This document shows positions 8,349 to 36,555 of a stretch of DNA of 64,000 nt, piece after piece; within the stretch, counting starts at the first letter, position 1, and each line of letters starts with the position of its first letter. Made by a program: the position numbers and the translations under genes. A model generated the notes under the pieces. That model did not search any database, was not told the DNA's origin, and worked only from the letters and a program-made list of their open reading frames with translations. The DNA is taken from IMG/VR virus record IMGVR_UViG_3300021185_003947; one strand, written 5' to 3'. The stretch comes from a virus. Lineage: Duplodnaviria; Caudoviricetes.

Positions 8349-8374
8349 AAAGAGCTCTCAGGAGCTCTTTTTTT
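8349..8374 (+). terminator. Intrinsic terminator between convergent genes
   Basis: AAAGAGCTC-TCAG-GAGCTCTTT hairpin followed by a T run. Confidence 0.7.
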
Positions 8375-8933
8375 GTTTAATAAAAATATCGACTGGAACA
8401 GCTAGTCTAAGATTAGAGTGATATGTTTTTACTAGATGATAAACATATCCTGGCATAATTATCACATCACTAGTTTTAGGTGCGTACTCAATAGGTTTAA
8501 ACATTTCAGTGGTTTTACCAAAATAACCTCTGTTAGCATTTGCTCTTGGATCGTACGCTACTAGCTCTCCACCTTTATCAATATCATCAGCAAGAACATA
8601 AAATACTGCAGCAAACTGAGCTCCGGAATGATTATGAATATTCATTGAATATCCCTTTTGAGATCCTGTTAACCAAGAACTAAATTCATAAGACATATCG
8701 TTTAAATCACTATTAAATACTTCTTTAAAAAATTCTGAATATTTTTCTATAGCCAAATCTTTTAATAATGGAATTTTATCTGTCAGTGTACCGCTGTCGT
8801 ATTCAGCCTGTGGTTTCATAATATTAGTACTAAGTAAAATCTCTTGAACTAATTCTTCGCATTGGTCTGAAGTAATTTGAGTTTTGTATATTGGTGTGGA
8901 CCAACACTGATTAATACCCGATTTCAACATCAT
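8358..8933 (-). CDS. Putative 2OG-Fe(II) oxygenase (HxH...H type)
   Basis: HNHSGAQFAAVFYV...GGELVAYDP...PGYVYHLV...RLAV double-stranded beta-helix motifs. Confidence 0.75.
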   Translation of the reverse strand: MMLKSGINQCWSTPIYKTQITSDQCEELVQEILLSTNIMKPQAEYDSGTLTDKIPLLKDLAIEKYSEFFKEVFNSDLNDMSYEFSSWLTGSQKGYSMNIHNHSGAQFAAVFYVLADDIDKGGELVAYDPRANANRGYFGKTTEMFKPIEYAPKTSDVIIMPGYVYHLVKTYHSNLRLAVPVDIFIKQKKSS

Positions 8934-9315
8934 AATATCCTTTTATGTCACGAACCATACCATGAATTACCATCAGTGGCCAATCTATATTGTTGAGTAT
9001 ACTATCGTATATTTCTTTACTATTTTTATATGTTTTAAAATATGGATCATTACCAGCTAAAAGCATTGGATCATTTAACAAATCATAAAAATCTTCATTG
9101 AAGTCTTTACTAATCCAATAAGCATAGCATATTGCTACAACATAACTCTTGGCTGGATATAGCCATTCATCTACTTTTTCATTAAAGTGTCGAATAGCAT
9201 TTTTAATAATAACCTCTTGATTATCATCAAAAACTATTTCTACTTTATTTAAATCATCTGTATGATCTTTATTTAATCTATGGTAAACTTCTTGTTTAAC
9301 TTGCCATTCTTTCAT
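8911..9315 (-). CDS. Hypothetical protein in the radical SAM cluster
   Basis: 134-aa ORF overlapping both neighbours; no recognisable motif. Confidence 0.7.
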   Translation of the reverse strand: MKEWQVKQEVYHRLNKDHTDDLNKVEIVFDDNQEVIIKNAIRHFNEKVDEWLYPAKSYVVAICYAYWISKDFNEDFYDLLNDPMLLAGNDPYFKTYKNSKEIYDSILNNIDWPLMVIHGMVRDIKGYYDVEIGY

Positions 9316-10204
9316 GATACCAATCCAATAATCCTCTATATCCGTTACAGCTATTATTTAAATCTTTGACATATCGATAATGCTCTGTTAAGCAGTTTCC
9401 AAAATACTTACATGAAGCACATATAGGACTTATCATTTCTTCTTTTTCTTTATTTGTCCAATCAATGTATTGTTCCCAAGAATCCAATTCAAGAAAGAAT
9501 TCTTTATCCTCTTCATCAAATTCCAAGACACCAAATTTGCCAGAAGGAGTGATGTATATATGATCATCCGAAAATGCATTGTATCTTCCTTTCATTGATT
9601 CTATAATTCTGTCTTCATTTACAAATTCAAACTTCATAGTGTCTTTTAATTTAAGCCACTTTATAACAAAATCTTCAAAGTCTTTGTGTGTCACATTGTG
9701 AGCATTTGCTTGATTAATTGAATATGGTTTAATCTCAACAGATGTAATTGACGAACACATATTCAACATATTAATCATTTCAGATACATCTTTTTCTAAC
9801 ACCTTTGGAGAAGCTAAAACCAAAACTGCAATAGGTACTGTACTCATTAACATATTATTAAATACAAGTTCAGACTTTTCTCTTGCTTCAAAATCATATG
9901 AAACAGAAAGATATACATCATCATCAAAAAAGCCTGGATGCATCATAGAATAATTTGTGTTGATGCTAATTTTACCTGAATAGTATTTTTTTATAACATC
10001 TTTAATGCCATAAAAATATGACTTTTTCATTGCGCCAACTTCGCCGCCGTATAAGTCAATATGTTCAATATTATGTACCTGAGATAGCAATATGTCTAGT
10101 TTATTGAACGAAATTTGTTTTTGATCTCCAAGTTGCTTAGTAGATAGGTAACAAAAATCACATCTAAAATTACAAAAATATGAAGGATTGATCGATACGA
10201 TCAT
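9296..10204 (-). CDS. Radical SAM protein with a Cys-rich SPASM/twitch-like C-terminus
   Basis: CNFRCDFC (CxxxCxxC), GGE motif, C-terminal CASCKYFGNC...C. Confidence 0.88.
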   Translation of the reverse strand: MIVSINPSYFCNFRCDFCYLSTKQLGDQKQISFNKLDILLSQVHNIEHIDLYGGEVGAMKKSYFYGIKDVIKKYYSGKISINTNYSMMHPGFFDDDVYLSVSYDFEAREKSELVFNNMLMSTVPIAVLVLASPKVLEKDVSEMINMLNMCSSITSVEIKPYSINQANAHNVTHKDFEDFVIKWLKLKDTMKFEFVNEDRIIESMKGRYNAFSDDHIYITPSGKFGVLEFDEEDKEFFLELDSWEQYIDWTNKEKEEMISPICASCKYFGNCLTEHYRYVKDLNNSCNGYRGLLDWYHERMAS

Positions 10205-10815
10205 TACCTGGCCGGAAAGGAAATATTCATTACTACTGCAAGTCTATCTTCTTCACCATAATAAGGAGTTACTTCATGCCATACATGTGCCGGAACAATA
10301 ATAATTGTATTTTTTTCAGTCTCAATAGACATTTTAGATTTAGGTCTTGTTTTTATAACCTGGTTAAATGCTGGGTCATGAAAAATTAATTTGCCACCAT
10401 CTTTATCATTATCTACACAGTCTAAATAATAAACCGCAACCATTGAAGCACCACTATGACAATGCAAACCTTTATAATCACCATTTCTCATAAAGGGCAA
10501 TCTTCCGGTGGTCAATTCCATCCGTTCTAAAATTTCGGCATGTGTAATTGATTCATCATATTCATTAGCTAGTTTTAAAAATGACTTTGCAAAAAAATCA
10601 TATAAACTTTTTATTTCATTATAATTTTTAATATTATCATCTGTAAATAACGGGATATGCACTCCATCATCTCCACCATCTTGATATGAAAGACCGGCCA
10701 TAGCTAAATGATTTCTAAATATTGCTTGACATACTGAATTAAGTGTACTACTTTCTTCTTCATTAATATCATGCAATTCATGTAACATTTTTATTGGAAA
10801 AATAGTTTTTATCAT
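10204..10815 (-). CDS. Putative 2OG-Fe(II) oxygenase (HxH...H type), paralog of 8358-8933
   Basis: HCHSGASMVAVYYL...GGKLIFHDP...PAHVWHEV...RLAV. Confidence 0.75.
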   Translation of the reverse strand: MIKTIFPIKMLHELHDINEEESSTLNSVCQAIFRNHLAMAGLSYQDGGDDGVHIPLFTDDNIKNYNEIKSLYDFFAKSFLKLANEYDESITHAEILERMELTTGRLPFMRNGDYKGLHCHSGASMVAVYYLDCVDNDKDGGKLIFHDPAFNQVIKTRPKSKMSIETEKNTIIIVPAHVWHEVTPYYGEEDRLAVVMNISFPAR

Positions 10816-11846
10816 GCGTATTCCCTCTCATACGGCGTCAATTGTCTATCGATGCTATTTATACTGATTATATCAGTTGCTAAAGTCTTCATATGTTTAC
10901 AATGATCTTCTACCATATTATGCTGTTTTAAATCTTTAATAGTTTTTTTACATCCATTACAAATTTCAAACATAGGACAAGTATAACATGCATTTTTTAA
11001 ACTCATTAAACTTAAATCTGTTGCAAGAGGTGTTGAAAACCCACCACTCATTTCGTAATCAAAATCAATAGCCTTATCTAAATCATCGCCAAATGCACCA
11101 CATGAATAGTAGTCACCTTCAGGTTGAAGTGTCCGAATGCCAGAATCGCATGTTCTTGTTTGTGGACATATAGTAGATTCTCCTCTTAGTCGTACCATCA
11201 TCTGTTGAGTGTTATGTTCCCAATCGCTTAATCCAGCTTTCCATATTTCAACATAACGTTCATATATTTTCGATAATTGATATGGAGCAGACTGAGAACC
11301 TGATGCCATAGCATAATTTACTTTACAGACTACATCCATTTTCTTTGCAAGTTCAACTGTCTTAATATGAGTATCTTCATTCTCTTCAACAATAACTGCT
11401 ATGAATGAAGGTCTATACCCAACATGTTCAACCATTGCATCTGAACACTTCCAAAAATCTTCTTCTGTAAATTCACTATAATCACCTTTTAATCTCCCTC
11501 CTCCATATTGAAATGATGTAGCTACACCAACTCGAGGATGGTTAAAAAGTTTTTTCCATTTCATTGGTTTCATAAGAAATGGATATAAATTTGTTGTAAG
11601 TGATATTGTTGCAGGCAGCTCATGCTTATCAAGATACTCTATAATTTTCCAATAGTAATTTGGTTTCATCATTAATGGATCGCCACCATTAACAATAATT
11701 GTTTGAGTATCTGGAAAACGTTTTAAAAACTTAAATATTTTATTTAAATCAAGAGTAGCAGTATTATCTTCAAACGTAATTTTAGATGATGAACAAAATG
11801 AACATTTAAAATTACACAATTCTGTTGGTTTGACAATTAGGTCCAT
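10812..11846 (-). CDS. Radical SAM/SPASM-like protein
   Basis: CNFKCSFC, GGDPL, CPQTRTC...YSCG...CYTCPMFEICNGC. Confidence 0.9.
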   Translation of the reverse strand: MDLIVKPTELCNFKCSFCSSSKITFEDNTATLDLNKIFKFLKRFPDTQTIIVNGGDPLMMKPNYYWKIIEYLDKHELPATISLTTNLYPFLMKPMKWKKLFNHPRVGVATSFQYGGGRLKGDYSEFTEEDFWKCSDAMVEHVGYRPSFIAVIVEENEDTHIKTVELAKKMDVVCKVNYAMASGSQSAPYQLSKIYERYVEIWKAGLSDWEHNTQQMMVRLRGESTICPQTRTCDSGIRTLQPEGDYYSCGAFGDDLDKAIDFDYEMSGGFSTPLATDLSLMSLKNACYTCPMFEICNGCKKTIKDLKQHNMVEDHCKHMKTLATDIISINSIDRQLTPYEREYA

Positions 11847-12382
11847 GGCGAATTGCTAACTTTAAACCCAAAATTCATAGTGATTCTGTGCATATCAGGA
11901 TCTCTGAAATGTTCAACTCTGTGTTCGAACTGTTTATCTTGGCTTCCTACTACTACATCATATTTTTGAGGTAAATGAAAGGCTGTGATTCTATTATTTT
12001 GTGATATATTTCTAAACATAATTTCACCACCAGCGTCTTTATTCATATCAGTAAAATATAAAAGAAACATTATATTTGCACCTTCACAAAAATCATTATG
12101 CCAATGACATGAAGTTTGTTCGGTGCCATTCCAACAATGATAATAAATCAAATCTTGTTTTTCTGAATATGGTTTTAAATAATGATTAAAAAGATAATCA
12201 GCAGTCATTAGCATTTTCTTTCGCATACCCAATATATAATAATTTAAAGGAAATCGATAATCTTTTCTATTACCAATACCTCTAAGCCATTTTATATTAG
12301 GAATAGTATCTTCTAAATATTGAAACGCTCGAACGTTATTTTCTGTGTAAAATCCATCATCCATTTTCCAACCATTTTTCAT
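11837..12382 (-). CDS. 2OG-Fe(II) oxygenase (prolyl-hydroxylase-like)
   Basis: HWHND (HxD)...GGEIMF...FEHRV...RITMNF. Confidence 0.75.
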   Translation of the reverse strand: MKNGWKMDDGFYTENNVRAFQYLEDTIPNIKWLRGIGNRKDYRFPLNYYILGMRKKMLMTADYLFNHYLKPYSEKQDLIYYHCWNGTEQTSCHWHNDFCEGANIMFLLYFTDMNKDAGGEIMFRNISQNNRITAFHLPQKYDVVVGSQDKQFEHRVEHFRDPDMHRITMNFGFKVSNSPWT

Positions 12383-13524
12383 AGCATTTTTACCTTTTGT
12401 CTAAATCCATATGATAAATCATCTTCACCATCACGTTTTGGTTTAAATCCCTTTGTTTTTTTAACGTAGTTAAACGTTTCTTTAAAAACACATTCTTCCA
12501 TATCATTGTGATCACCTGGCATATCAGCTTTTACAAAGCATGTGAATGGACAGTTTTCATAATATTCACACTCAAAACAATTATATTTTTTTAAAAACTT
12601 TTCTACCATCTCTCCTGTTTCAAATAGTGTTTCACCAGTTTTTTTATCTCGCTGATATGCTACACCACAACATCCACCGGGTGATGAACCATCAGGTTGA
12701 ATAGTTATTGAATTACCTCTTGTGCACATCATTGCACCAGTTTGATTCAATGGATCATGAAATGCATCCATATTTTCGCACTCAGGATAGTTATCTACTA
12801 AATATTTATTGAATGCTAATAACTCACTGTCTTTAGGAATTAATTTTGCATCTGCTTTAATTAATGGCGATGGCATATAAGCATCAAAATCAACTGGGAA
12901 GTTTTTATACAAATAATCAAAAGTGCTTTTATCGTTACTTTTTATAATTGTTTGTACATTTTGGCTAGTAGTAACAATTGAAACGTTTCTAATATAATCT
13001 TTAAAAGTCTCAACATTTTCTAAGAATATTTCTAGTTGACCTTTGTTAAATCTACCTCTTGGATCATAAGAAGTTGAAAGCTTTACATCGTGCTTATTAC
13101 AAAAGTCCATAACCTTATCTGAATTTTTTTTGTCAAACATAAAATTAGTAAGATAATTAAAATAAATTCTTTTGTCACCAATGTTAATCTTGGATTTGAC
13201 TAAGTCCATAAATTCTTCATATACATCTAAAAAGCCTTTTTCAATCCATAGATCTTCAAATAATTCTCCACCTAATAGATGTAATTTATAGTCTTTTGAT
13301 CTTGGCGAATTGTTAATAAATTTAGCAACAGTATCGCTTTTTGCTAAAATTTCTTCTCGAGTAGCTCCAACCATTGAGTTATGATCTTGTGGACAAAACA
13401 CACATTTTAAATTACAATGTTCAAAGAATATTATAACAAGTTCACTTGATCGAGTAATCTTGCTTCCTAAGATTTTGTATATATCAAAATCAAGTGGAGC
13501 TGGATTAATAGGTGCTACAGACAT
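12379..13524 (-). CDS. Radical SAM/SPASM-like protein
   Basis: CNLKCVFC, GGELF, CTRG...CCG...CFECEYYENCPFTC...C. Confidence 0.88.
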   Translation of the reverse strand: MSVAPINPAPLDFDIYKILGSKITRSSELVIIFFEHCNLKCVFCPQDHNSMVGATREEILAKSDTVAKFINNSPRSKDYKLHLLGGELFEDLWIEKGFLDVYEEFMDLVKSKINIGDKRIYFNYLTNFMFDKKNSDKVMDFCNKHDVKLSTSYDPRGRFNKGQLEIFLENVETFKDYIRNVSIVTTSQNVQTIIKSNDKSTFDYLYKNFPVDFDAYMPSPLIKADAKLIPKDSELLAFNKYLVDNYPECENMDAFHDPLNQTGAMMCTRGNSITIQPDGSSPGGCCGVAYQRDKKTGETLFETGEMVEKFLKKYNCFECEYYENCPFTCFVKADMPGDHNDMEECVFKETFNYVKKTKGFKPKRDGEDDLSYGFRQKVKML

Positions 13525-15185
13525 TCTTTACTTACCTCTGACATAATTATATGTCTATTTTTTTCTATAAATTTATTTATAGTATTTGCTCTAAACTCTT
13601 GATTTAAAACTTTAATGCTTTTTGGTTGAGAATTTGGATTAAATATATCTCTTATTTCAGAATGTATATCATCCCATCTATCTAATTTACTTATAGCTTC
13701 ATATGCTTTTTTAGTAAAGACTGATGGCGATATGCTATTTTCAAGCATAGGATAAAAGTGCTGCAATAAATAATTTCCAGCACTATTCATAAACCACATT
13801 TCATGCATTTCTTCAATTGTAAACGAAAAGCACGATGATATTGTTTTGAAATACGATTTTTTATTTTTGTACAAATTATTCCAGCTATCAATTCCCTGTT
13901 CATCCGCAATATCAGTATAAACTTCAACTGTTCGAATATCATATTTAATTTTATATTCCTGAGAATTAAGCGCTGAATCCGGAAGAAACATATAATCATG
14001 TCTATAAGAACCAAACGATTTAAAATTCCAGATATATTCCATTTCATTATAAAAGTCTTCTATTGTAGAACCTGGCATTGCAAGGATCATTTCTAAATTA
14101 GGTATCGGAAACCCATGCTTTGAACATTGCTCATTAATGTGTTTACTTAATTTTAATTTATCTTCTGTATTTAAATCAACTCTTTCAGCTATTTTCATTG
14201 CAATGTCAGAACTGCTTTGAATAGACACTGATGGAACTATCGATATATTGGCCATCTCACTCCACATATCTTTTCCATTTTTCATATTTGGAGAAGTGTA
14301 ATTTGTTCCAACAATTTCAAAATACTTATCAATTAATTTTTTTCTTCTATTTAAATCCTTAGATTTCATGGTAGAAATATCAGTTAAATTAAAACCATTT
14401 GTCCAAGCATATTCGAATATTTCAAAGTCTCTTTCAAAAAAAGCTCCAAAGTTTGCATCATTTAAATAAGCAGATCTATAACCGGCTTTTAGCATAGCAT
14501 TGATATCACGTTTTACTATGTCCAAGGATTTCTTATAAATCTTTGTATTAATACCTCCACCCCATTCGCAAAATACACACTTATAAGGACAACCTCTTGT
14601 TGTCTCTAAAACAATAAACGGTTCCATTTTATTATTACGAGCGTATTTAAGTAATTTTGTAAGATATTCTAAATGATCTTCGTATACTGAATAATCTTCT
14701 TTTGATAAATCATGTATGAATTTTACATCAGATCTTAATTCCCATGGAATACTTGTTGGATCTATTCTGTTTTCAATAAACTGATCGATAAGCTCAGCCA
14801 TAAATGGCTCACCTGGTTTAGTAGGTCTACAAATTAAATCATACTGAGGACGTGATGCTAATAGTTCTGGTTCATTGGTTCCAATATGTGGACCACCTAA
14901 AACTAGTATTTTTTCTGGATATTTATTTTTAATTTTATTAGAAATTTCATCACATATCATATAGTTCCAAGTATAAGAAGAAAACATAATTATATCTGCT
15001 TCAATTATATCATTTATTACTTCATCATAAGATTTATAGCTATTCCATTTATATGGTGATTCTAACCACTTTACTTTTTTACTGTATTTGCCAAAACGAG
15101 AATAGTAACTTTGCATTAATAAAAATGTAAAGTTATTTGCTAGTGACCAGTCAGCGTGAGGAGGATTAATAAATGCTATAATCAT
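13515..15185 (-). CDS. Radical SAM protein with an N-terminal B12-binding-like domain (class B-like)
   Basis: N-terminal IAFINPP...FSSYTWN...VLGGPH and ETTRGCPYKCVFCEWG. Confidence 0.82.
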   Translation of the reverse strand: MIIAFINPPHADWSLANNFTFLLMQSYYSRFGKYSKKVKWLESPYKWNSYKSYDEVINDIIEADIIMFSSYTWNYMICDEISNKIKNKYPEKILVLGGPHIGTNEPELLASRPQYDLICRPTKPGEPFMAELIDQFIENRIDPTSIPWELRSDVKFIHDLSKEDYSVYEDHLEYLTKLLKYARNNKMEPFIVLETTRGCPYKCVFCEWGGGINTKIYKKSLDIVKRDINAMLKAGYRSAYLNDANFGAFFERDFEIFEYAWTNGFNLTDISTMKSKDLNRRKKLIDKYFEIVGTNYTSPNMKNGKDMWSEMANISIVPSVSIQSSSDIAMKIAERVDLNTEDKLKLSKHINEQCSKHGFPIPNLEMILAMPGSTIEDFYNEMEYIWNFKSFGSYRHDYMFLPDSALNSQEYKIKYDIRTVEVYTDIADEQGIDSWNNLYKNKKSYFKTISSCFSFTIEEMHEMWFMNSAGNYLLQHFYPMLENSISPSVFTKKAYEAISKLDRWDDIHSEIRDIFNPNSQPKSIKVLNQEFRANTINKFIEKNRHIIMSEVSKECL

Positions 15186-15218
15186 ACTTCATTCTATACA
15201 TTACAAATTAAAAAATAT

Positions 15219-16349
15219 TTAAACTGTTACATATTTAGCAATAGTTGTTTTATCAGAAACAGAATTAGCATCTAGTAGCGAATGAATTAAATAATGATTT
15301 ACAGTTTCAAGTTCTAATGCAAAGAATTTTTCAGGTTCTTTATCATCTGATGATTCAATTAAAATAAGCTTATCTAATAGTTCATCTGTTAATTCAGTAT
15401 TAATTGCTGGTAAGAATTCTAATATGCTATCATCTCTTAAAGTAAAATCAGACCATTGACTTTCTATAATAGCTACAAACTCTTTAATAGTATTAAGATC
15501 TGAATCAGAAATATTTTCGAATATTACATTATCACTACTAGAAGCGCCACTTAGATATTTTATAGACCACATATCGTCTTTAATAAACAGTTGAGCAAAT
15601 TTAGAAGTATCTGTAAAAATGTCATTAATATTATTTAATGTGTAAGTTTTGTCTAAATTTAATTTATTAGCAAAAGATTTAGTTAAGAAATGTTGAAAAA
15701 ATATTTCTTTTAATTCGTAAAGATATTGTTCAAACACTTTTTTCAGCAAAGGTTTAACTACACCTTTTAACTCTGCTTTTGAAGATTTGTCATTAAGATA
15801 ATTTGCTAGTAGATGTTCAACACTTATTGTGCTTTTATATTTTACCATAAACGCTTTTTTCTTGGCGGCTGAAGGGGCTTTAACACTATCATAAATGGTA
15901 TTGAAATTTTCTACTTTTAAAATTTCACCAGATCCTAATTTTGCATTATTACTTGAAAACCTGCCTCTAAAAAATGTATTAAATTTAAAAGCATGTGCTT
16001 TTACTAATGATTCTACTGAATCAGCTTTCGGAGTTTTTAAAATAAATTTATACCAAGTAGACATAATAAATTGAAATGCTGCACTATCGCAATAAACAAC
16101 GATTCTTTTATTTGTAGAATCACATTTGGCAGCTAATTCATCAAAAAGAGTTGTAGCATCTTTAAACGTTTTATCTTTTCCTAGAATATCATTCCATTCA
16201 AGTCCATATGCAATGAGTTGACCAGATAATATTTTTTGAAGATCTTCTAAAAGATTAAAACCGTTACTTTGCGATACAACAATACGATCAAAATTTGGAT
16301 CGATGATATTATCTGTTGTTACATAAATCTTCTTAAACAGATGTATCAT
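15219..16349 (-). CDS. Hypothetical protein (376 aa) in the cluster
   Basis: Long ORF coupled to the upstream gene; no recognisable motif. Confidence 0.75.
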   Translation of the reverse strand: MIHLFKKIYVTTDNIIDPNFDRIVVSQSNGFNLLEDLQKILSGQLIAYGLEWNDILGKDKTFKDATTLFDELAAKCDSTNKRIVVYCDSAAFQFIMSTWYKFILKTPKADSVESLVKAHAFKFNTFFRGRFSSNNAKLGSGEILKVENFNTIYDSVKAPSAAKKKAFMVKYKSTISVEHLLANYLNDKSSKAELKGVVKPLLKKVFEQYLYELKEIFFQHFLTKSFANKLNLDKTYTLNNINDIFTDTSKFAQLFIKDDMWSIKYLSGASSSDNVIFENISDSDLNTIKEFVAIIESQWSDFTLRDDSILEFLPAINTELTDELLDKLILIESSDDKEPEKFFALELETVNHYLIHSLLDANSVSDKTTIAKYVTV

Positions 16350-16993
16350 AACTGTTCTCCTGTGGCGATTGAACTTGTTAGTAAAAACATTGGGTTATTA
16401 ACATTCGCCCAATAACTAAATAGATTATTTCCTTTAAACATATACTCATTAAAATATGATTTATAATATGTTTTATGATGTTCAATTACATTGGCATAAA
16501 ATAAATAAAAGCTTTCGTATTTAAGTAAATTTACAAAATTTATTCCAGTTAAATCTTTTGTATCATCTTCTGGAAATGATTTAACGTAGTCTTTTAATTC
16601 ATCACATTCAACAGTGTACAAATTATAAAGCGAAAGTGAATCTAATTTCTTAGCCCAAGTAGTAAGTATTTCAACGTTATCATCAATAAAATCTTTTTCT
16701 ATTAACTCACTAATACCTTTCATCTGCAATAATAAACTAATTACTCTTTCTTCAAGAATAGGAATACTTATAATAAAATTAGCTAAAAGATATTCTCTAG
16801 TAAGATCATCAAAATCTTTCTGATCAGTAAAACCAATATTGCATGGCAATTCCAGATTACTGAGATATGTTAATAGCTTTGTTCCCTGCAATTGTGAATT
16901 TTCATAATCAACCATATAAAAAGTTTGATCATCTTCAAAATACAATTTCAAATCTTCAATACTAAATGGTGCAGTAACATCAATAACTTTCAT
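16346..16993 (-). CDS. Hypothetical protein (215 aa) in the cluster
   Basis: Start at MKVIDV gives an ATGA overlap with the stop of the CHxS-protein gene. Confidence 0.72.
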   Translation of the reverse strand: MKVIDVTAPFSIEDLKLYFEDDQTFYMVDYENSQLQGTKLLTYLSNLELPCNIGFTDQKDFDDLTREYLLANFIISIPILEERVISLLLQMKGISELIEKDFIDDNVEILTTWAKKLDSLSLYNLYTVECDELKDYVKSFPEDDTKDLTGINFVNLLKYESFYLFYANVIEHHKTYYKSYFNEYMFKGNNLFSYWANVNNPMFLLTSSIATGEQL

Positions 16994-17553
16994 CTTCTTC
17001 CTCTCGAGCCATGACAACTGCTATGACAACTTGCATGACAAATATTAATATTTACAGTAACAGTATTGGAAACTAAACTATTAAAACGGGTCTGTAAGTC
17101 TGTAAATTTAGCTTCAAGACCAGAAGCACTAATTTGAGTACCAGCAGTTAAAGTAACTCCAGCCGCAGATAATGTTTGTGCATAACTACTGTTTAAATAA
17201 GCTTTTCGTGTTTGATTAAAAATTTGTCCAGGATTAGGATATGTTCCTGTATTACCACCAGGGCCTGTTACTGTTCGGGTTGCCTTTAAATTTCTAATTT
17301 GACTATACGCCGCGGTTTCATTTTCAATTGCAGTATTGATAACAGAAGCAGTGATTGGATTTTGATTTATATCGGCTCCAGTAATTCCAATGCTCCGACC
17401 AGCAGTCGTTCCACCAAAATATGATGTAGAAAATCCACTAAACGGAACTGAATTAGTACCCCAAACAATACCAGAGTTTGCACTTGCCGGTGCAAAATCC
17501 GCAAATCTATCTATTATATTCTGTGCGCTAATTGGACTTGTTAGTGTAGCCAT
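16990..17553 (-). CDS. Thr/Ser/Gly-rich protein with C-terminal CHASCHSSCHGSRGRR; candidate substrate of the cluster enzymes
   Basis: 187 aa; every Cys and His lies in the last 16 residues; GAGG RBS and late promoter upstream. Confidence 0.85.
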   Translation of the reverse strand: MATLTSPISAQNIIDRFADFAPASANSGIVWGTNSVPFSGFSTSYFGGTTAGRSIGITGADINQNPITASVINTAIENETAAYSQIRNLKATRTVTGPGGNTGTYPNPGQIFNQTRKAYLNSSYAQTLSAAGVTLTAGTQISASGLEAKFTDLQTRFNSLVSNTVTVNINICHASCHSSCHGSRGRR

Positions 17554-17579
17554 TTCATTCCTCTTTTGTTATATACGTG

Positions 17580-17587
17580 TATTTATA
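17580..17587 (-). promoter_or_regulatory. Late promoter TATAAATA for the CHxS protein
   Basis: Exact consensus overlapping the stop of the upstream radical SAM gene, 26 nt before the ATG. Confidence 0.75.
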
Positions 17588-18602
17588 CATGTTTTGCGAG
17601 TTCCATCATTAAACTTTTTGGTGCACCACAAATATCTCCATCCCATCCTAATTGATGACAATCACCTCCACAAAATCTAGATACAGGGCAAGATAAACAA
17701 TTAGGATTACGCATTTTTTCTTCTAATATAGTACGAATTCTTTTTGGACTTTTTAACAATGTATCAATTGAATCGTCTAAACTTCCAAAGGCTTGTTCTG
17801 GCGCGCTGTTTGGACATCCTGCAATAGTACCATTGCCGTTTATTGTAAATAGCTTTTGTTCACAATCTCTACAAAAAGTTCCACATGTAGTCATAGTCTT
17901 TTCAAACTTAGCATATACATTTTCTAGAAAGTCGTTTTCAAACCAATCTCGTGCTCCGTGCTCTTCACTTTGCATGTGCATTTTTAAAAAATATTCATCA
18001 AGTTCTTTATTGCTTGGAAATATTTCTGATGCTTCTCGGGCACTACCATTATTAGTTAGTCTTTCCAGTGAAACTTCTTGCACACCAAGTCGGCGGCACC
18101 ATCTTAATAATACTATGGGATCTTTTGCAAGCGTATCTTTTGTAAGACTAATAAACAAACGAATAGTAACACCATCTGCCAAAAGTGTTTTAACATTTTT
18201 ATGCCAAAGATTATATTGGTTTTTATTTTCAAATCGAATCTTACGATCCCACGATGTGCCAAGTCTATTTCCAAGAGGACCTTTAATAAAATCCATATGC
18301 TGATCTTTTAATTTAAAAACTAAATTAGTTGTGGCACCCCACGACATTTGATCCCATAAACCATCACATGCATCATATACCTTTCGCATTTGGCCAACCG
18401 GCACAAGAAACGGTTCACCGCCATGAAATTCCATATGTATAGAATCTTGTGCTGCAGGTTTTTCTTTTCTAAATCTATGAATCCAGTCAACTAGCTTATC
18501 AGTATTCCAATAAATCTTTTGACCACTTCTTCCGCTTGTAAAACAATGCGCACAATTAAGCTGACATGTTTCTGTTGTTTTGAGATACATCAGCCAGTTC
18601 AT
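17583..18602 (-). CDS. Radical SAM/SPASM-like protein
   Basis: CQLNCAHC, FHGGEP, CGTFCRDC...GCPN...CLSCPVSRFCGGDC...C. Confidence 0.92.
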   Translation of the reverse strand: MNWLMYLKTTETCQLNCAHCFTSGRSGQKIYWNTDKLVDWIHRFRKEKPAAQDSIHMEFHGGEPFLVPVGQMRKVYDACDGLWDQMSWGATTNLVFKLKDQHMDFIKGPLGNRLGTSWDRKIRFENKNQYNLWHKNVKTLLADGVTIRLFISLTKDTLAKDPIVLLRWCRRLGVQEVSLERLTNNGSAREASEIFPSNKELDEYFLKMHMQSEEHGARDWFENDFLENVYAKFEKTMTTCGTFCRDCEQKLFTINGNGTIAGCPNSAPEQAFGSLDDSIDTLLKSPKRIRTILEEKMRNPNCLSCPVSRFCGGDCHQLGWDGDICGAPKSLMMELAKHV

Positions 18603-19083
18603 TATTAATTTTATCCTCTGTATAATTTTCTAAACCAAAGCTTAAAGTTAATGCTTCATCTTTATTTAATGCTTGATGAGGCGTATAAGCTGGTATATGT
18701 ATATATTCTCCTTGAATAATAGTCACTGGCTTATCATCAATTATTAAAGACTTAGATCCTTCACAGCAATATATAACAACATCATCTGGATCGGTATGCA
18801 TATCAAAAGAATAAGACCCAGCCATTGCAAAAAATAAATGACATGTAACATGTTGTTCATGTTTCCAATCAGTTTTTATTTTCCAACAATATTCATATAT
18901 TGTTGAATTAAAGTTTTCCATACGTTCGATTTTTATAGAATGGTTTTGTTTTTGTACTTTACAAAAATCACTGAAACTAGTAATTAGCTGTTCACGACCC
19001 TGTTCATCTATAGCATAAACCATATTTTGTTCATACATATGATTTGCAGTAAGTGCAGATATGAGTTGAGATTTATTAATCAT
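18556..19083 (-). CDS. Cupin/JmjC-like oxygenase
   Basis: FDMHTDPDDV (HxD)...IHIPAYTPHQA. Confidence 0.72.
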   Translation of the reverse strand: MINKSQLISALTANHMYEQNMVYAIDEQGREQLITSFSDFCKVQKQNHSIKIERMENFNSTIYEYCWKIKTDWKHEQHVTCHLFFAMAGSYSFDMHTDPDDVVIYCCEGSKSLIIDDKPVTIIQGEYIHIPAYTPHQALNKDEALTLSFGLENYTEDKINNELADVSQNNRNMSA

Positions 19084-19089
19084 TATTTA

Positions 19090-19118
19090 ATTATATACTA
19101 TTTTTAATTAAATGTAAA
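19090..19118 (-). promoter_or_regulatory. Sigma70-like promoter TTTACA-N17-TATAAT at the head of the enzyme cluster
   Basis: Near-consensus hexamers with 17-nt spacing immediately upstream of 19083. Confidence 0.75.
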
Positions 19119-19125
19119 CAGTTAT

Positions 19126-20685
19126 TTACACTTTAAGGACACATTCTATCAATTTTTCTTCATCTACAGTAGACGATTCTAAAGCTACACCTACCATCAT
19201 AGCTCCATTAAATTCTTTACTTGCTCGGCCATTATGGTGTGTATATACTGGATCACCTTTATGAACTCCACCAACAACCCTTACTGGAACTCTTCCTTTA
19301 AGACCTAAAGCTTGACCAGGAGCGTCTGCATTCATTAAATAAGCAGGTTGAGCTGAAATTACGCCGACTGGAATTCCACTTGATGTGCAAGGAGTAGTTT
19401 CTTCAGTTTTATTAAATGACGCCATCATTACTGTTCCAACTGGATGCTCTTCGCTTGTAGTATATTTTTCTGCAAGGTCAGCATAATTTGCAGTTGCAGC
19501 ATTACCAGCAATTGTACCGGAAGATAATGTTTGTGTTGATGGATTATACATTAAATGTCCATCATCAGTATCAATATAAGGTCTTTGATAACCTGTGCCA
19601 TTATTATCGCTAAATAATACTTGGTAATTTACATCGTCATTTTTTTCATCAACTTTTACAAAATCAGCTTCGCCTCCAGAAACTGTACAAGCGCCAGTAT
19701 TTGCCATTGTAACATGACCAGATAATGCTGCAGTAGTAAAACCTGAGCCATTACCAATTAGAATTTGTGTGTCTGCTACTGTAATATCTGAAGGATCTGC
19801 TGCTGAAGAACTATTTCCAACTTTTACTGAATTTGCTGGCATATTGGCAAGCTTATCATTAGTCACAGCATCATCAGTTATTTGACCTGTTATTACTTGC
19901 CCTGCCTGAATACCTCCAGATGCTTGGCGACCAATTACAGTATTAGTTCCTGCTTGTACAGAGCCAATATCACCAGCAGCTGATCTACCAATAACTGAAT
20001 GATCTGGTATTGCTAAATCTCCTGGATCACCACTAGTACCTGCCTGGCGAGTTTTTATTGTATATCCTGCCATATTAGCAAGCTTAGCATTAGTTACTTG
20101 ATCATCTGATATCATATCAGTTTGAATTTGCACTTCTTCAATTGTTCCAGAATCTGTTTTACCAAGCACTCTATTTGCAGTTACGATGTCTTGCATTTTA
20201 TCATAGGTTACAACATCAGGCTGAATTGTGACCACGCCAGCATTTGTCATAAGAACATCTTGAGATAAAGCGGTAGATGTAAAACCAGTTCCATTACCAA
20301 TTAAAATTTGCTCGTTAGTAACTGCCTTATTTGATGATGCTCCAGTAGTTCCGGCATCTCTTACCTTAACAGTATTTGCTGGCATATCTTCTAATTTAAG
20401 ACCAGATGCTTCTTGAGTTAAACCGTGACCACCCGCTACTGAAAATGTTCCACTTGAATCTCCAGTAAGGTTTCCATTAACACTAGTTTTTAAAATTCCA
20501 TTTCCTGCATTATAGTTTCTTCGCACAGCTTTACTAAAATTTAAGGCTTTTACTATATTTGAATCATGGCCAGCATAGTCACTACTAAGATCATCTAGAT
20601 CACCGATGTGAGCAGCAATATTATTAGATTTTACTCTAAAAGTGTTAATTGTATCACTTAAATTTATAACTGTCTGTCTAGCCAT
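19126..20685 (-). CDS. Tail fibre-like protein with VTNxKLANM repeats and a C-terminal chaperone/autocleavage-like domain
   Basis: Repeated VTNAKLANM and ILIGNG[TS]GFT blocks; C-terminal NYADLAEKY...GRVPVRVVGGVHKGD. Confidence 0.72.
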   Translation of the reverse strand: MARQTVINLSDTINTFRVKSNNIAAHIGDLDDLSSDYAGHDSNIVKALNFSKAVRRNYNAGNGILKTSVNGNLTGDSSGTFSVAGGHGLTQEASGLKLEDMPANTVKVRDAGTTGASSNKAVTNEQILIGNGTGFTSTALSQDVLMTNAGVVTIQPDVVTYDKMQDIVTANRVLGKTDSGTIEEVQIQTDMISDDQVTNAKLANMAGYTIKTRQAGTSGDPGDLAIPDHSVIGRSAAGDIGSVQAGTNTVIGRQASGGIQAGQVITGQITDDAVTNDKLANMPANSVKVGNSSSAADPSDITVADTQILIGNGSGFTTAALSGHVTMANTGACTVSGGEADFVKVDEKNDDVNYQVLFSDNNGTGYQRPYIDTDDGHLMYNPSTQTLSSGTIAGNAATANYADLAEKYTTSEEHPVGTVMMASFNKTEETTPCTSSGIPVGVISAQPAYLMNADAPGQALGLKGRVPVRVVGGVHKGDPVYTHHNGRASKEFNGAMMVGVALESSTVDEEKLIECVLKV

Positions 20686-34200: not shown

Positions 34201-34321
34201 AATCAGCTGTTGGATTTTCACCTGATGCATCTTCAAAACCAGTTCCTCGAACAGTTCCTAGTAGAAGAGCTCTTCTATTTTGTGCAGCTACATTTTCAAG
34301 TTCTTTATTATTTAAACTCAT
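31280..34321 (-). CDS. gp5 C-terminal-like spike protein with a degenerate M15-peptidase-like domain
   Basis: YDDTIGSERI..KHMSG...EMKPDG and beta-helix-like repeats; C-terminal LGWGGDF region. Confidence 0.65.
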   Translation of the reverse strand: MSLNNKELENVAAQNRRALLLGTVRGTGFEDASGENPTADYFFEQGTEKSTRGVSIHNLETDVSTVIGREDISLTHSTPSDAAQVSIKTTPKGHVALYDDTIGSERILLKHMSGAGVEMKPDGSIIVNARGNRVDLVTGNHHLFTEGNGNLTYSGDLTMNIGGDFNLDVGGNYNLKVGGHWIVNVFGSYTKRIIGMMAETIQKVKSTTVLKDVTNTFLGKLSTSVKEDYEFIVRGESDYNHKGSTTLTSQTEISLTSPNINIVAQDLTATGNTGTIGGENIVMYNYNMYTGHSINALDTVTTKSMYATDTLDTQTINSTRVNSTSMHATTFHGDLTGMADQAISADTANVGPTNGVAAGFTNVNTTADAVDATAANTTKGPKKWPTDAASDYGPSGLDNLKPLPTETTTSLFLDKSAYMVQSVFVDDDDGIYNYMDKTVTTAGVTDKPLTTAEIRIKLRNPANKSNLAFVNECIANDTLSSSYTEKVPPHVNRILGKKTQSRMGSNTIGAADPGAKTIRYKPTDTSKKQIKFIVPEAQYNPNNIKDIKMGTLLSPGIPVAKFFPNSETMNDMSQVERHRMARNLVATVKLLKLVKVPKFMEGFNIKIVEGVQKLGTTDVSAPSDSITKLSATGRVVGFEVRNSRSGDLSPGVTFDLAAYLKDNAEYDKLIMSYDTYEIDELSSGEKILYASIIVVMPEIPQNYNVTFKQEIETHFNNEVQSTKDLIEISLSETGSVELEEPTTPAITAEGLKKIKTKNGFYTFVSGAVWNNFQAFINKLEGPDYNYEIKTLDGYATTTQKYSNLPDEFTGEDLWTSNASGLGININISQNLKGTTLVHDFPSAISQIAREHGLGWGGDFSVYKDASLFSMRDEEGGSLPAPRTNKVYQTAETKAEAAKPVEEKKQVQEPKPKKAKIETELPSGTYGSREELLAAAKAGKHAPGSTLTYHDVEGEKEWFDRYGSNGYGFGPSEYKVYISRAIPSKHLYIAIEEGAEDFILGASRTGGGLNWSLK

Positions 34322-36555
34322 TTTTTGCCTACACTTTCTTTATACGATTTAAGGCTATTAATAGGAATCCCTAACATATTTTTTATACCAAGTGCTCCTC
34401 GAGTAGCTTCAATTATAGATTTTCCTTCAGCTATAAATTCAGCTTGTTTTTCTCTATCTAACACAACATTTACAACTTCATCTGTAATTAATTCTTTTGG
34501 TTTTACTATATCACCTTCTTTTAACATATCATTATTAAGAAGTTGTACAATTTCATCATATCCATGAGCTAAAATAGGTATAGCTCCAGGTAATGGTGCT
34601 GCAGTTTTTACTTGCTCTTTATCTGGTACAGGAGGAATTATAGCTGGAGCTGGAGAGGGCGTAACAAATGGAGCATTATTTTCTGTAATAGCATCAGATA
34701 ACATAACTTGCTCTGCAACTAATGCATCTTGGTCTACATTTTCTAATTCCGGATCTGTTTGATTAGTAGTTTTAAATCTATTTTTTAAATATCCTCCAAC
34801 ATCAAATCCAGGATCTTGAGCCCAATGTTCAATATCATTATGTCCAAAAACACTACATCCCGGCCATATTGCATAATACGATTTTACTATTATATCAAGA
34901 GTTTTCATTTGAGCTGTCGTTAAAGATTCTTTACCATATTTCCAATATTCTTTCTTTTCAGTTGAATAAGAATTCAATCCACCTATAAAGACTACACCAA
35001 TACTATATTTGTCATGATTATCAGTATGACGACCTTCAATATAAACTGGTCTGCCTCTTTCTATTTGTCCATTTTTCTTTACAACGTAATGATAACCAAT
35101 GCCATCTTGATTCAGCGTTATAGCTCTTTCATGTACTTCTTCAGCACCTGCATGAGATTGATCTAAAAAATGTTCACTCCAATGCAATACGAGTTCTGTA
35201 ATTTCTCTTTTAACACTATTAAATTCTGCAACTAATTCTTCAGGTGAATTAACTCGAGTAAATGCGTACTCACCTGGATTTTTAACTTTTCTTTTACTTT
35301 CAGAAATTACCGTTTGTGCACCTGACCAATTAGATGCAGCTTGACCTATTTCAATTCTTTCAGATGCAAGAGGAGGACTATCTGCATCATCTGGCACAAT
35401 ATTGGTAGAAAGATCTGTTGTAAGACTATTAACCTTTTTTTCAATATCAGTAGTAAGTTTACCTATTTGATTTTCAATAATAGCTCGAGCCTGTCCGGCT
35501 GGTATACCTGGTATTGTTATTTTACCCGTGTCTGGATCTAAGTATGGAACAATCTCTGCACCAAATGTTGTTATTTTACCCGTGTCTGGATCTAAGTATG
35601 GAACAATTTTTCCTAATTTAGCGCTTTGTAATATTGCGGCCGAATTAATGTCATTAATTACTGATGTAAATTTTTCATTTTTTAAATTTTTTACGGCTTG
35701 TAAAGTTTGATCAACATCTAAAACCGCGCCGGCAAGATCTTTTATTCCTCTTGTTAAATGATCATCTGCCGATAATTTAGCATTTTGAATTAATCCTAAT
35801 GCGTTGTTAATTTCAGCATCAACATTTGTTACGGTATTTAAAATATTATCTACATCTTTAATTGATATATCTAAATCTACATTCAATGCGTTTTGTAAAC
35901 CACCTAAGCCATTAGTTAATTTTTTTAGCTGATTAGGAAGAGCAGTTATATTGTTTAATGCACCAGTTAGATTTGTTTCAAGAGCATTAGCAGCAGACTC
36001 TAATGCAGCAACTTTTGCTAAACCATCTTTTGCAAAATCTGATAATTCTGCTGGAACAATTCCTTTCATAATTTTATTAAAATCAGGAAGTTCGCCTGTA
36101 ACTTTATTAATAGCCGATTGAATTGATTGTGGTGTTCCAACTAGTTTATTAGCTTTTTTTATTCCAGATCTAAGTGTTGCAACTGCAGTTTTTGGTGTAA
36201 ACACTTCTCCAGTATCAGGATTTGTCCATGGTCGAGCACTCATTTGTTGAACAATTTCTTCTTCTGCAGTAGTTAAAGCCTTATTCATTTTATCTTCAAG
36301 CCCTGGCATTTCATTAGTTAAAGTTGCAATAGGTGCTACCGCTACTAAATTTGCTATGCTTTCTTTTGCTACTGGCAAAGATTCAGTAAGTGATTTAATA
36401 CCATTGATAGAATTACCAACTTTATTTAAAGCTAATTTAGTTTCATTTAAAGCTTTTACTTGATTACTAACTTTATCTATTTTAGAAGTCAAGTTTTGGA
36501 AGTCTAATGTACCTCGTACATTATTTAATTTATCGTTTAATCCTCTAATATCCAT
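34318..36555 (-). CDS. Tail-associated protein with an N-acetylmuramoyl-L-alanine amidase domain
   Basis: LVLHWS...IGYHYVV..NGQIERGRP...SIGVVFIGG...FGHND...DPGFDV; long helical N-terminus. Confidence 0.8.
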   Translation of the reverse strand: MDIRGLNDKLNNVRGTLDFQNLTSKIDKVSNQVKALNETKLALNKVGNSINGIKSLTESLPVAKESIANLVAVAPIATLTNEMPGLEDKMNKALTTAEEEIVQQMSARPWTNPDTGEVFTPKTAVATLRSGIKKANKLVGTPQSIQSAINKVTGELPDFNKIMKGIVPAELSDFAKDGLAKVAALESAANALETNLTGALNNITALPNQLKKLTNGLGGLQNALNVDLDISIKDVDNILNTVTNVDAEINNALGLIQNAKLSADDHLTRGIKDLAGAVLDVDQTLQAVKNLKNEKFTSVINDINSAAILQSAKLGKIVPYLDPDTGKITTFGAEIVPYLDPDTGKITIPGIPAGQARAIIENQIGKLTTDIEKKVNSLTTDLSTNIVPDDADSPPLASERIEIGQAASNWSGAQTVISESKRKVKNPGEYAFTRVNSPEELVAEFNSVKREITELVLHWSEHFLDQSHAGAEEVHERAITLNQDGIGYHYVVKKNGQIERGRPVYIEGRHTDNHDKYSIGVVFIGGLNSYSTEKKEYWKYGKESLTTAQMKTLDIIVKSYYAIWPGCSVFGHNDIEHWAQDPGFDVGGYLKNRFKTTNQTDPELENVDQDALVAEQVMLSDAITENNAPFVTPSPAPAIIPPVPDKEQVKTAAPLPGAIPILAHGYDEIVQLLNNDMLKEGDIVKPKELITDEVVNVVLDREKQAEFIAEGKSIIEATRGALGIKNMLGIPINSLKSYKESVGKK
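35514..35607. repeat. 40-nt exact direct repeat with 54-nt period (IVPYLDPDTGKIT twice)
   Basis: Copies at 35514-35553 and 35568-35607. Confidence 0.85.

Follow-up and report, generated by a model that had tools for sequence, protein, structure and literature searches.

We analysed a 64,000-nt stretch of DNA (hereafter the window) from a virus of the class Caudoviricetes, IMG/VR record IMGVR_UViG_3300021185_003947, which carries a gene cassette between positions 19083 and 8358 of the minus strand, the strand on which all window features given below lie. The cassette combines four radical S-adenosylmethionine enzymes (rSAMs) with Cys-rich C-terminal regions, one B12-type rSAM, four Fe(II)/2-oxoglutarate (2OG) oxygenase- or cupin-type proteins and three orphans with a 187-aa protein, here called CHxS, which ends in three Cys-His-x-Ser repeats. 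In the interpretation that we favour, with somewhat better than even confidence, the core enzymes modify this C-terminal tag of a late virion protein in trans, most likely by cross-linking, and the matured protein joins the baseplate or fibre apparatus. To our knowledge, the products known to be matured by rSAMs are small peptides and a few cellular proteins, and parts of phage virions are not among them. On balance, the cassette would represent a case in which rSAMs mature a ribosomal product with repeats, the substrate class and the biological setting both being new. Across hundreds of phage lineages and a phylum of predatory bacteria, the 16-residue tag is accompanied by a fixed set of four rSAMs and an oxygenase.

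According to the open reading frame (ORF) listing, the cassette comprises 13 consecutive co-oriented genes, most of which overlap their neighbours by 4–50 nt. In transcription order, these encode a cupin (175 aa), rSAM4 (339 aa), CHxS, orfC (215 or 223 aa), orfB (376 aa), the B12 rSAM (556 aa), rSAM3 (381 aa), ox3 (181 aa), rSAM2 (344 aa), ox2, rSAM1 (302 aa), orfA (134 aa) and ox1. Genes were assigned using Pfam, PHROG and NCBIfam scans together with conserved-residue alignments of 18–95 homologues per enzyme family. An earlier note, made from the sequence alone, had described 12 co-oriented, overlapping genes between two tail-fibre genes. The orientation and overlap were correct and the count is 13; the upstream flanking gene does encode a fibre-like protein (519 aa, with DUF5907 repeats), but the downstream one encodes a structural-looking protein of 2,312 aa with no family match showing a fibre. 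The same note's inventory of enzymes withstood closer inspection: CxxxCxxC is conserved across homologues of all five rSAMs and 4–8 auxiliary Cys across those of rSAM1–4, all four 2OG/cupin proteins were recognized by hidden Markov models (HMMs) and/or HxD...H residues, and the three orphans had no Pfam or NCBIfam match.

The CHxS gene (16990–17553) has 396 detectable homologues, and among the matches listed 120 of 120 end in C-H-x-S-C-H-x-S-C-H-x-S-R-x-R-R. In the window, the protein ends in CHASCHSSCHGSRGRR, that is, (CHxS)x3-RGRR; read directly from the codons, this tail extends from C172 to R187 (16993–17040) and is followed by the stop codon. A back-translated pattern of the tail, which fixes only Cys, His, Arg and the stop and leaves the fourth position (Ser) free, occurs once in the window compared to 0 expected, and matched at least 120 IMG/VR contigs and 47 contigs from bacterial and archaeal species genomes compared to ~0.1 by chance. 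Across 283 distinct tailed proteins, C, H and R were invariant, the unconstrained Ser was found in 261, 241 and 257 proteins (repeats 1–3, respectively) and 77% of the proteins had no other Cys. Using a profile of the last 75 residues, we identified 737 clusters in a 50%-identity representative library, and in 149 of the top 150 the three-repeat motif forms the exact end of the protein. The length of the carriers varies between 125 and 365 aa; their N-terminal domains cannot be aligned between classes, and a helix-strand-tail module is common to them. Judged by these alignments, the tail is a portable C-terminal tag on unrelated N-terminal domains. A few variants were also seen, including four loci with four or more C-H-x-x repeats in place of three (L048, L164, L165 and L173) and one representative with a broken middle repeat (P0262).

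A search by the tail pattern alone makes no selection on neighbouring genes, and we used the resulting loci to count linked genes, restricting the counts to carriers of at least 150 aa. In 61 of 68 loci, the gene immediately upstream of the tail gene is a homologue of rSAM4, which makes rSAM4 the gene linked most tightly to it, and in 60 of 70 the gene immediately downstream is orfC. For these carriers, 87 of 91 viral and 31 of 33 genomic loci contain a cassette-type rSAM, in agreement with the expectation in the earlier note that the enzymes should accompany CHxS proteins in other genomes. The synteny it had suggested looking for was found as well: all 13 related viral contigs retrieved through the CHxS protein keep the cassette order, even at 40–45% CHxS identity.

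A second class of carriers consists of tandem pairs of tailed proteins of 125–140 aa, which have a different N-terminal domain and usually no enzyme nearby. Such pairs occur in many marine phage contigs (L016, L041, L049, L054, L069, L088, L090, L092, L093, L103 and others), often right after a fibre gene; L093 is on the same 151-kb contig as L011, which has a full cassette and its own 195-aa tailed protein. When ten tandem-pair contigs were searched, rSAM4 was found elsewhere on all five contigs of 42–66 kb and on one of five shorter ones. In the two contigs inspected, rSAM4 belongs to a compact cupin-rSAM4-rSAM2-rSAM1-orfA-rSAM3 operon that contains no tail gene, and four of the five long contigs have distant orfC homologues ~9 kb away. 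Tail genes and enzymes can therefore be separated, in some phages by 10–40 kb, and retention of the tag with the enzyme operon even when the two are apart on the contig is what one would expect if the enzymes recognize a sequence tag and act on it in trans. Based on these locus comparisons, the conserved core is the cupin, four rSAM orthologue groups, orfA, orfC and at least one tagged protein, while the B12 enzyme, orfB and the 2OG oxygenases are variable.

A homologue of the CHxS protein is present in virions. The tailed protein translated from the locus of Agrobacterium phage Atu_ph07 (L014:10044–10934) ends in the tail and has a calculated mass identical to that published for gp170, which was detected among the Atu_ph07 virion proteins by gel-based liquid chromatography–tandem mass spectrometry (31.89 kDa, 8 unique peptides, 35% coverage; PMC6102473, Table S5). 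Its C-terminal tryptic peptide comprises 30 residues, three of them Cys. The adjacent rSAMs and the orfC homologue (gp165–169, gp171 and gp172) are not in the published virion list (PMC6102473), indicating that the homologue is a virion component and the enzymes are not. Together with the comparative genomics, this supports the proposal in the earlier note that the pathway matures a virion protein. In the published gel, gp170 was spread over bands 1–9 and peaked in band 1, whose other dominant proteins are 87–137 kDa (PMC6102473). Migration so far above its own size fits either a sodium dodecyl sulfate (SDS)-stable oligomer or covalent cross-linking. The window protein shares the C-terminal helix-strand-tail module with gp170 and the two have a common predicted fold (E = 1e-7), and its structural model (predicted local distance difference test (pLDDT) score, 84.5; 45–60 for the tail, which is predicted to be disordered on its own) otherwise retrieved only uncharacterized phage proteins from BFVD. 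Comparison of the model to solved folds gave no convincing match (best Foldseek E value in the PDB, 0.44; best Z score in the wide VIA-align search, 4.1).

The CHxS gene also carries a signal of its own. A T4-type late-promoter-like sequence, TATAAATA (17580–17587), overlaps the rSAM4 stop codon and is 27 nt before the CHxS ATG. Among viral loci, it occurs no more than 80 nt upstream of 39 of 128 CHxS genes, compared to 0 of 89 rSAM4 and 0 of 81 orfC genes. Because the window as a whole contains 16 copies compared to 14.3 expected, which is not above chance, only the placement of the motif is informative. Given this late-type motif, late synthesis, as for structural genes, is probable for the CHxS protein. 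At the head of the cassette, a promoter-like sequence of sigma-70 type read directly from the DNA (TTTACA-N17-TATAAT, 19090–19118) is close to consensus and ends 6 nt before the cupin ATG, which has no Shine-Dalgarno sequence before it, although a chance match is possible in this AT-rich genome. From this spacing, the first enzymes may come from a leaderless transcript made by the host polymerase, whereas the CHxS gene has its own late-type motif.

We next consider the enzymes. CxxxCxxC, the motif that holds the [4Fe-4S] cluster for SAM cleavage, is present in all five rSAMs and is conserved at 0.99–1.00 across 18–95 homologues each. Only rSAM2 passed the PF04055 cut-off (37.4 versus 29.5 bits); the others scored 18–28 bits, and rSAM4 was detected solely by NCBIfam models. 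The core enzyme rSAM4 (17583–18602) scored 35.3 bits against the SPASM model TIGR04085 (cut-off 27), in line with the SPASM-like tails proposed earlier, and has C13, C17, C20 and eight auxiliary Cys conserved in 95 homologues. SPASM Cys motifs are also conserved in two further core enzymes, rSAM2 (10812–11846; eight auxiliary Cys of SPASM type; 21.8 bits on the SPASM model, below the cut-off of 27; full-length DynA-like match, E = 1e-13) and rSAM3 (12379–13524; seven conserved auxiliary Cys with a SPASM motif including Cx2Cx5Cx3C), which is present in nearly all complete loci. The auxiliary Cys in these two include the spacing Cx2Cx5Cx3C or Cx2Cx5Cx2C; the SPASM signature is a C-terminal set of seven Cys (C-x9-15-G-x4-C ... 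Cx2Cx5Cx3C ... C) that serves two auxiliary clusters. The fourth core enzyme, rSAM1 (9296–10204), has four conserved C-terminal Cys, resembling a partial SPASM or twitch-like domain. The variable accessory B12 rSAM (13515–15185), found in only a subset of loci, has a B12-binding domain followed by an rSAM domain, the right order for class B, with both matches below cut-off (PF02310, E = 8e-7, 29.3 versus 32.1 bits; PF04055, E = 2e-6, 28.4 versus 29.5 bits). Its best NCBIfam match was the KedN5 family (E = 1.8e-23), at 82.6 bits far below the cut-off of 700, and by its domain composition the enzyme is probably a C-methyltransferase.

Matches outside the family point toward protein and peptide modification. 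The best weak full-length matches of rSAM4 and rSAM2 were DynA, anSME, PapB, CbpB, DarE and QhpD, all of which are protein- or peptide-modifying SPASM enzymes, and the rSAM4 family profile retrieved ChlB, anSME (end to end, E = 1e-8), 8VPO and CteB among solved structures. Single-sequence searches of PDB sequences with rSAM4 and rSAM2 gave no match, and the family profile was needed for rSAM4. Apart from rSAM4 on TIGR04085, no cassette protein from the window or from a bacterial copy reached an NCBIfam trusted cut-off. Models of metabolic rSAMs (MoaA, NrdG and QueE type) gave 15–34 bits, below their cut-offs, and their matches were shorter and weaker than those to SPASM maturases. The enzymes thus resemble anSME, DynA, PapB, CteB and ChlB rather than QueE, MoaA or base-modification families, the nucleotide and cofactor enzymes named in the earlier note as the result that would speak against its proposal. 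We also considered a viperin-like nucleotide role for rSAM1 and rejected it (27–41 bits versus a cut-off of 180, N-terminal half only, and conserved C-terminal Cys that would be unexpected in viperins).

These matches also bear on the way in which such genes have usually been described. In genome papers on rSAM-rich phages, including Campylobacter phages CP220/CPt10, T4-like marine EVGs, the RSL2/RSF1/FLC6/S13 phages and Atu_ph07, they are annotated only as ‘radical SAM’, ‘Fe-S oxidoreductase’, ‘cupin’ or ‘2OG oxygenase’ and treated as accessory or metabolic (PMC2853527, PMC5332604, PMC8066314, PMC11898562), and none of these papers connects the enzymes with virion proteins or with a substrate that has a tail. 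One could accordingly read the cassette as a loose group of auxiliary metabolic genes that enhance the Fe-S or rSAM metabolism of the host, with an unrelated CHxS protein nearby, and 2OG oxygenases of family PF13759 are indeed frequent morons of marine phages (phrog_81). We regard this as very improbable: gene order is fixed, reading frames overlap, co-occurrence with the tail is strict across very different phages and a bacterial phylum, and no metabolic rSAM family was matched at its cut-off. The earlier statement that no characterized phage system has this layout still holds, in that we found no curated family, and no description in full-text literature searches, for either the tag or the system.

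Three of the four oxygenase-type proteins (ox1, ox2 and the cupin) met an HMM cut-off, and the full H-x-D...H triad is seen in the cupin and ox3. The core protein cupin175 (18556–19083) is a small cupin/JmjC-like Fe(II) oxygenase (Cupin_2, 33.2 bits, cut-off 27.2; JmjC_2, 30.4 bits, cut-off 22) with H96, D98 and H136 conserved in 69 homologues, and in most loci its gene adjoins rSAM4, usually directly upstream. The PF13759 oxygenases ox1 (8358–8933), encoded by the last cassette gene, and ox2 (10204–10815), a variable accessory, scored 37.7 and 39.7 bits (cut-off 27); H102, D128 and H166 are conserved in ox1, compared to only H120 and H180 in ox2 at 90% conservation. The variable protein ox3 (11837–12382) had no Pfam match and, with H95-x-D97...H154 conserved in 45 homologues, is probably a cupin-type oxygenase.

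The orphans include two core proteins. The likely start of orfC (16346–16993) is Met9 of the listed ORF, whose ATG overlaps the CHxS stop codon as ATGA (16990–16993), suggesting translational coupling of a partner to its substrate. The orfC product had no Pfam or NCBIfam match, and its confident model (pLDDT 94.5) returned only its own family in fold searches of the PDB, AFDB clusters and the ESM Atlas. No Cys, His, Asp or Glu is found among its invariant residues, and we therefore favour a non-catalytic partner role for it, for example as a chaperone, an adaptor or an assembly factor. A predicted complex with the CHxS protein had a median score of 0.00, which has no bearing on binding either way. 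The small protein orfA (8911–9315) matches phrog_20737 (E = 7e-38), with no Pfam match in 21 members, and accompanies rSAM1 in phages and rSAM4 plus the cupin in Bdellovibrionota. The third orphan, orfB (15219–16349), had no family match and is common, without being universal, in marine T4-like versions of the cassette. Look-ups of orfC, orfB and orfA in a language-model atlas gave no usable lead.

Whether the system should be called a ribosomally made, post-translationally modified peptide (RiPP) pathway is a separate matter. We found no match to a RiPP recognition element (RRE; PqqD-like) in any cassette protein or in 21 orfA and 45 orfC homologues at E values up to 1, a result at the sequence level that leaves room for a structurally divergent RRE in orfA. 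rSAM4 has no N-terminal RRE extension, and because the rSAM motifs begin at residues 11–37, there is no room for one at the N-terminus of these enzymes. Pfam, PHROG and NCBIfam scans and locus comparisons likewise revealed no protease or transporter in the conserved gene set. The putative substrate is not a short precursor that loses a leader or follower to a dedicated protease and yields an exported product, as in a RiPP, but a folded 187-aa protein whose homologue stays in virions. The ‘RiPP-like’ pathway of the earlier note is thus supported as dedicated protein maturation, while the RRE it had listed as a check was absent and the RiPP label fits less well. In the absence of an RRE, leader or protease, the system is not a classic RiPP and is closer to the maturation of proteins by anSME (acting on sulfatases) and QhpD (acting on QhpC).

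The same observations bear on whether the tail might be cut off after modification and released as a peptide or cofactor that acts in infection or predation, on the model of pyrroloquinoline quinone or mycofactocin. In mycofactocin and other peptides, the core motif is at the extreme C-terminus, as is the tail here; R-x-R-R could be a processing signal, and an abundance of tailoring enzymes, with a B12 methylase and oxygenases among them, is a usual mark of natural-product pathways. We nevertheless consider release improbable, since the conserved set contains no protease or transporter, the N-terminal domain is well folded and conserved, the Atu_ph07 homologue is a virion component and the gene has a late-promoter-like element as structural genes do.

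In the maturation scheme that we favour, the exposed C-terminal tag (Cys-His-x-Ser)x3-Arg-x-Arg-Arg would be recognized and modified in the infected cell by a fixed enzyme set of four paralogous rSAMs (three full SPASM enzymes and one partial), the small cupin/JmjC Fe(II) oxygenase, orfC and orfA. Lineage-specific extras (the B12 rSAM, further 2OG oxygenases and orfB) might add hydroxylation or methylation. The likeliest chemistry would be radical formation of intramolecular cross-links at Cys, His and Ser, as thioether and/or His-centred C-C or C-S links, and cross-links of such kinds are made by other SPASM enzymes and by the HXS system described below. On a more speculative note, the invariant adjacent Cys-His pair may point to joint action of both side chains, which could serve as ligands or be joined by a C-S link. 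The floppy tail would in this way become a compact, covalently knotted and possibly metal-binding end piece, and the matured protein would be built into the virion near the baseplate or fibres, with a role in host contact, fibre stability or envelope penetration. With enzymes acting in trans, any tag-bearing protein could be a substrate.

Several points weigh against this scheme. Because related loci lack phylogenetic independence, the co-occurrence counts exaggerate how many separate events they represent. None of the members has so far shown a mass shift or a cross-link, the published proteomics reporting no C-terminal peptide, and the high gel position of gp170 could be due to an SDS-resistant oligomer, which is common for fibre proteins. 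The cassette proteins include no RRE or other recognized substrate-binding module. Furthermore, four to five rSAMs are many for 16 residues, such that some may act elsewhere, for example on neighbouring fibres, and the Cys3His3 tail could simply be a metal site.

The last two points can be combined into a distinct explanation, in which the tail is an unmodified Cys3His3 metal site (for example, for Zn, Fe or Cu on a fibre axis), the enzymes act on fibres, glycan or lipid, and the gene linkage reflects a shared structural module rather than an enzyme–substrate pair. Cys and His are classic metal ligands, and phage fibres use His-coordinated metal ions; the tail is disordered when modelled alone, as a metal site without its metal would be; and large fibre-like genes flank the cassette, which holds more enzymes than 16 residues seem to need. 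Against this, the enzyme set follows the tail and not a given fibre, being kept in jumbo phages and Bdellovibrionota with different neighbours, and the linkage persists where tail genes and enzymes lie 10–40 kb apart. The Ser at position 4 and R-x-R-R are conserved as strongly as the ligands and a simple metal site needs neither, and SPASM enzymes of this type act on Cys-containing motifs of peptides and proteins. We therefore consider an unmodified metal site unlikely, if the most serious of the alternatives to tag modification.

Among known systems, the closest analogue is the HXS antiphage system described in 2026 (HxsA/B/C/D; TIGR03976–03979), in which an effector with five His-x-Ser repeats is matured by two rSAMs and a small partner (PMC13128918). 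A change of +8 Da was mapped to an S-H-R-S-S unit, of which the His and both flanking Ser are essential (PMC13128918). The two systems have in common a ribosomal H-x-S repeat protein, several rSAMs and small accessory proteins, with three H-x-S units in the cassette protein, each after a Cys. However, the cassette is not a member of the Hxs families: its rSAMs scored only 23.9–33.8 bits on HxsB compared to a cut-off of 370 and 28.8–37.5 bits on HxsC compared to 267.9. It also differs in the invariant Cys before each His, the C-terminal position of the repeats and the R-x-R-R end, and in having four or five rSAMs plus oxygenases instead of two rSAMs. The CHxS protein has no peptidoglycan-binding or other Pfam domain and no N-terminal signal sequence obvious by eye, and it is a phage or predator protein with a homologue in virions, whereas the HXS effector, with a signal peptide and a peptidoglycan-binding domain, is a bacterial periplasmic defence protein. 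The resemblance raises the question of whether related chemistry serves attack and defence at the cell envelope.

A second point of comparison is anSME (PDB 4K36–4K39; TIGR03942), which like rSAM4 is a SPASM enzyme of ~340–370 aa without an RRE, and which acts on a short Cys/Ser motif in a full-size protein. The rSAM4 family profile aligned with it end to end, it is the best NCBIfam match of the bacterial rSAM4 orthologue (71 bits), and the last repeat, C-H-x-S-R, resembles the sulfatase motif C/S-x-P/A-x-R at Cys, Ser and Arg. These scores (42.3 bits for the window protein and 71 for the bacterial orthologue) are nevertheless far below the equivalog cut-off of 349, no sulfatase domain is present, and position 3 of the last repeat, across the 283 tailed proteins, is far more commonly Gly, Ser, Thr or Asn than Ala (8 of 283) and never Pro. 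Thioether-forming SPASM maturases (PapB/ranthipeptides, CteB, QhpD, and the CXXX-repeat and Cys-every-fifth systems) likewise act near regularly spaced Cys, and we found weak full-length matches to PapB (E = 2e-10), QhpD, CefB and the CXXX-repeat maturase. A methanogen enzyme that forms thioether cross-links in a protein (PMC13692751) shows that, as with QhpD, such enzymes can modify proteins and not small peptides. In contrast to these maturases, the cassette has no leader or RRE and matches no model at cut-off, its His is invariant beside each Cys, and the acceptor Asp/Glu at +4 used by PapB and QhpD is absent.

The system extends to cultured phages, among them the jumbo phages Atu_ph07 and the RSL2/FLC group. 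A search with the cassette DNA and a tblastn search with the CHxS protein against cultured phages gave no match, because the CHxS N-terminal domain is too divergent, and relatives were instead recovered through rSAM4 and the back-translated tail pattern. Homologues of rSAM4 with 41–50% identity are present in 15 cultured-phage records, including Agrobacterium phage Atu_ph07, Sinorhizobium phage Phosso, the Ralstonia/Burkholderia RSL2-RSF1-FLC-S13 group and Pseudomonas phage pPa_SNUABM_DT01; no Campylobacter phage was among the rSAM4 homologues found. In Atu_ph07 and RSL2, the gene next to rSAM4 encodes a protein whose N-terminus is unrelated by BLAST but which ends in the same 16 residues. In RSL2-type jumbo phages, a gene annotated as dihydrofolate reductase lies amid the cassette genes (L015, RSL2, 15042–15578). 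With culturable members such as Atu_ph07, RSL2/RSF1, FLC6/FLC8, S13, Phosso and pPa_SNUABM_DT01, direct testing is feasible.

Outside phages, 27 of ~40 genuine bacterial matches to the tail pattern are from Bdellovibrionota (Bdellovibrio, Bacteriovorax, Halobacteriovorax and Pseudobdellovibrio lineages), and some are on chromosomal contigs of megabase size. Seven of the 47 bacterial pattern matches (L137, L138, L139, L141, L142, L159 and L167) were judged to be due to chance and contain no tailed protein: six are on high-GC contigs of Actinomycetota, Burkholderia-type or Bordetella origin and one on a Pseudoalteromonas contig, with no ORF or an empty one in six and a 32-residue Arg-rich ORF in one. 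Four 20-kb regions from Bdellovibrionota (L184–L187) contain the full set of rSAM1–4, orfA, orfC, cupin and ox3, often with the B12 enzyme, together with tailed proteins. Their neighbours are not prophage-like and include a 2,355-aa RCC1/Big_2 protein, a 413-aa Peptidase_S74 protein, a transposase, and transglutaminase-elicitor-like and clostripain-like proteins; Peptidase_S74 is an intramolecular-chaperone domain typical of trimeric fibres. Because orfC was found in only 7 of 201 sampled Bdellovibrionota genomes, the distribution is sporadic and suggests an accessory island exchanged with phages. Bdellovibrio reportedly uses phage-fibre-like adhesins, and a role in host contact would then fit phage and predator alike.

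Taken further, and as a tentative reading that we hold to be possible but less than probable, the end piece would be a new kind of covalently cross-linked part on host-contact organelles, perhaps linked between molecules or active in metal binding or redox reactions, and this part would be shared by phages (marine T4-like and jumbo phages) and predatory Bdellovibrionota through gene exchange. It would then be a common tool for gripping or breaching Gram-negative envelopes and the first rSAM-matured virion protein, with the migration of gp170 at the top of the gel as its signature. The more general proposal of tag modification has consequences of its own. If the tag is modified, this would be a new protein modification, probably involving new enzyme chemistry on the Cys-His-x-Ser unit, and would give a function to the ‘radical-SAM-rich’ phage genomes noted since 2010. 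It would also add a chemical layer to fibre and baseplate construction and provide a portable tag and enzyme pair for protein engineering.

Finally, we examined the genomic setting of the cassette. Based on baseplate-protein identity, the virus is an uncultured marine T4-like myophage, with phage C48C1 (40%) and Pelagibacter and Methylophilales myophages (31–33%) as its closest cultured relatives. The upstream flank is a T4-like baseplate module of wedge subunits, hub and a tail-lysozyme-like protein, followed by a 1,754-aa structural protein and then by the 519-aa fibre-like protein (19126–20685). The C-terminal region of the latter (residues ~381–460, around A-N-Y-A-D-L-A-E-K-Y) matched no family and no solved structure, and its conservation extends to 51 other loci; of the 78 loci whose upstream sequence is long enough, 50 have it within 3 kb upstream of the CHxS gene. 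This region may be a docking partner of tagged proteins. Within the baseplate module, a 745-aa protein (34318–36555) contains an amidase/endolysin-type domain at residues ~448–645 (phrog_822 and phrog_1493) and, on the basis of this domain, is probably a virion-associated cell-wall hydrolase.

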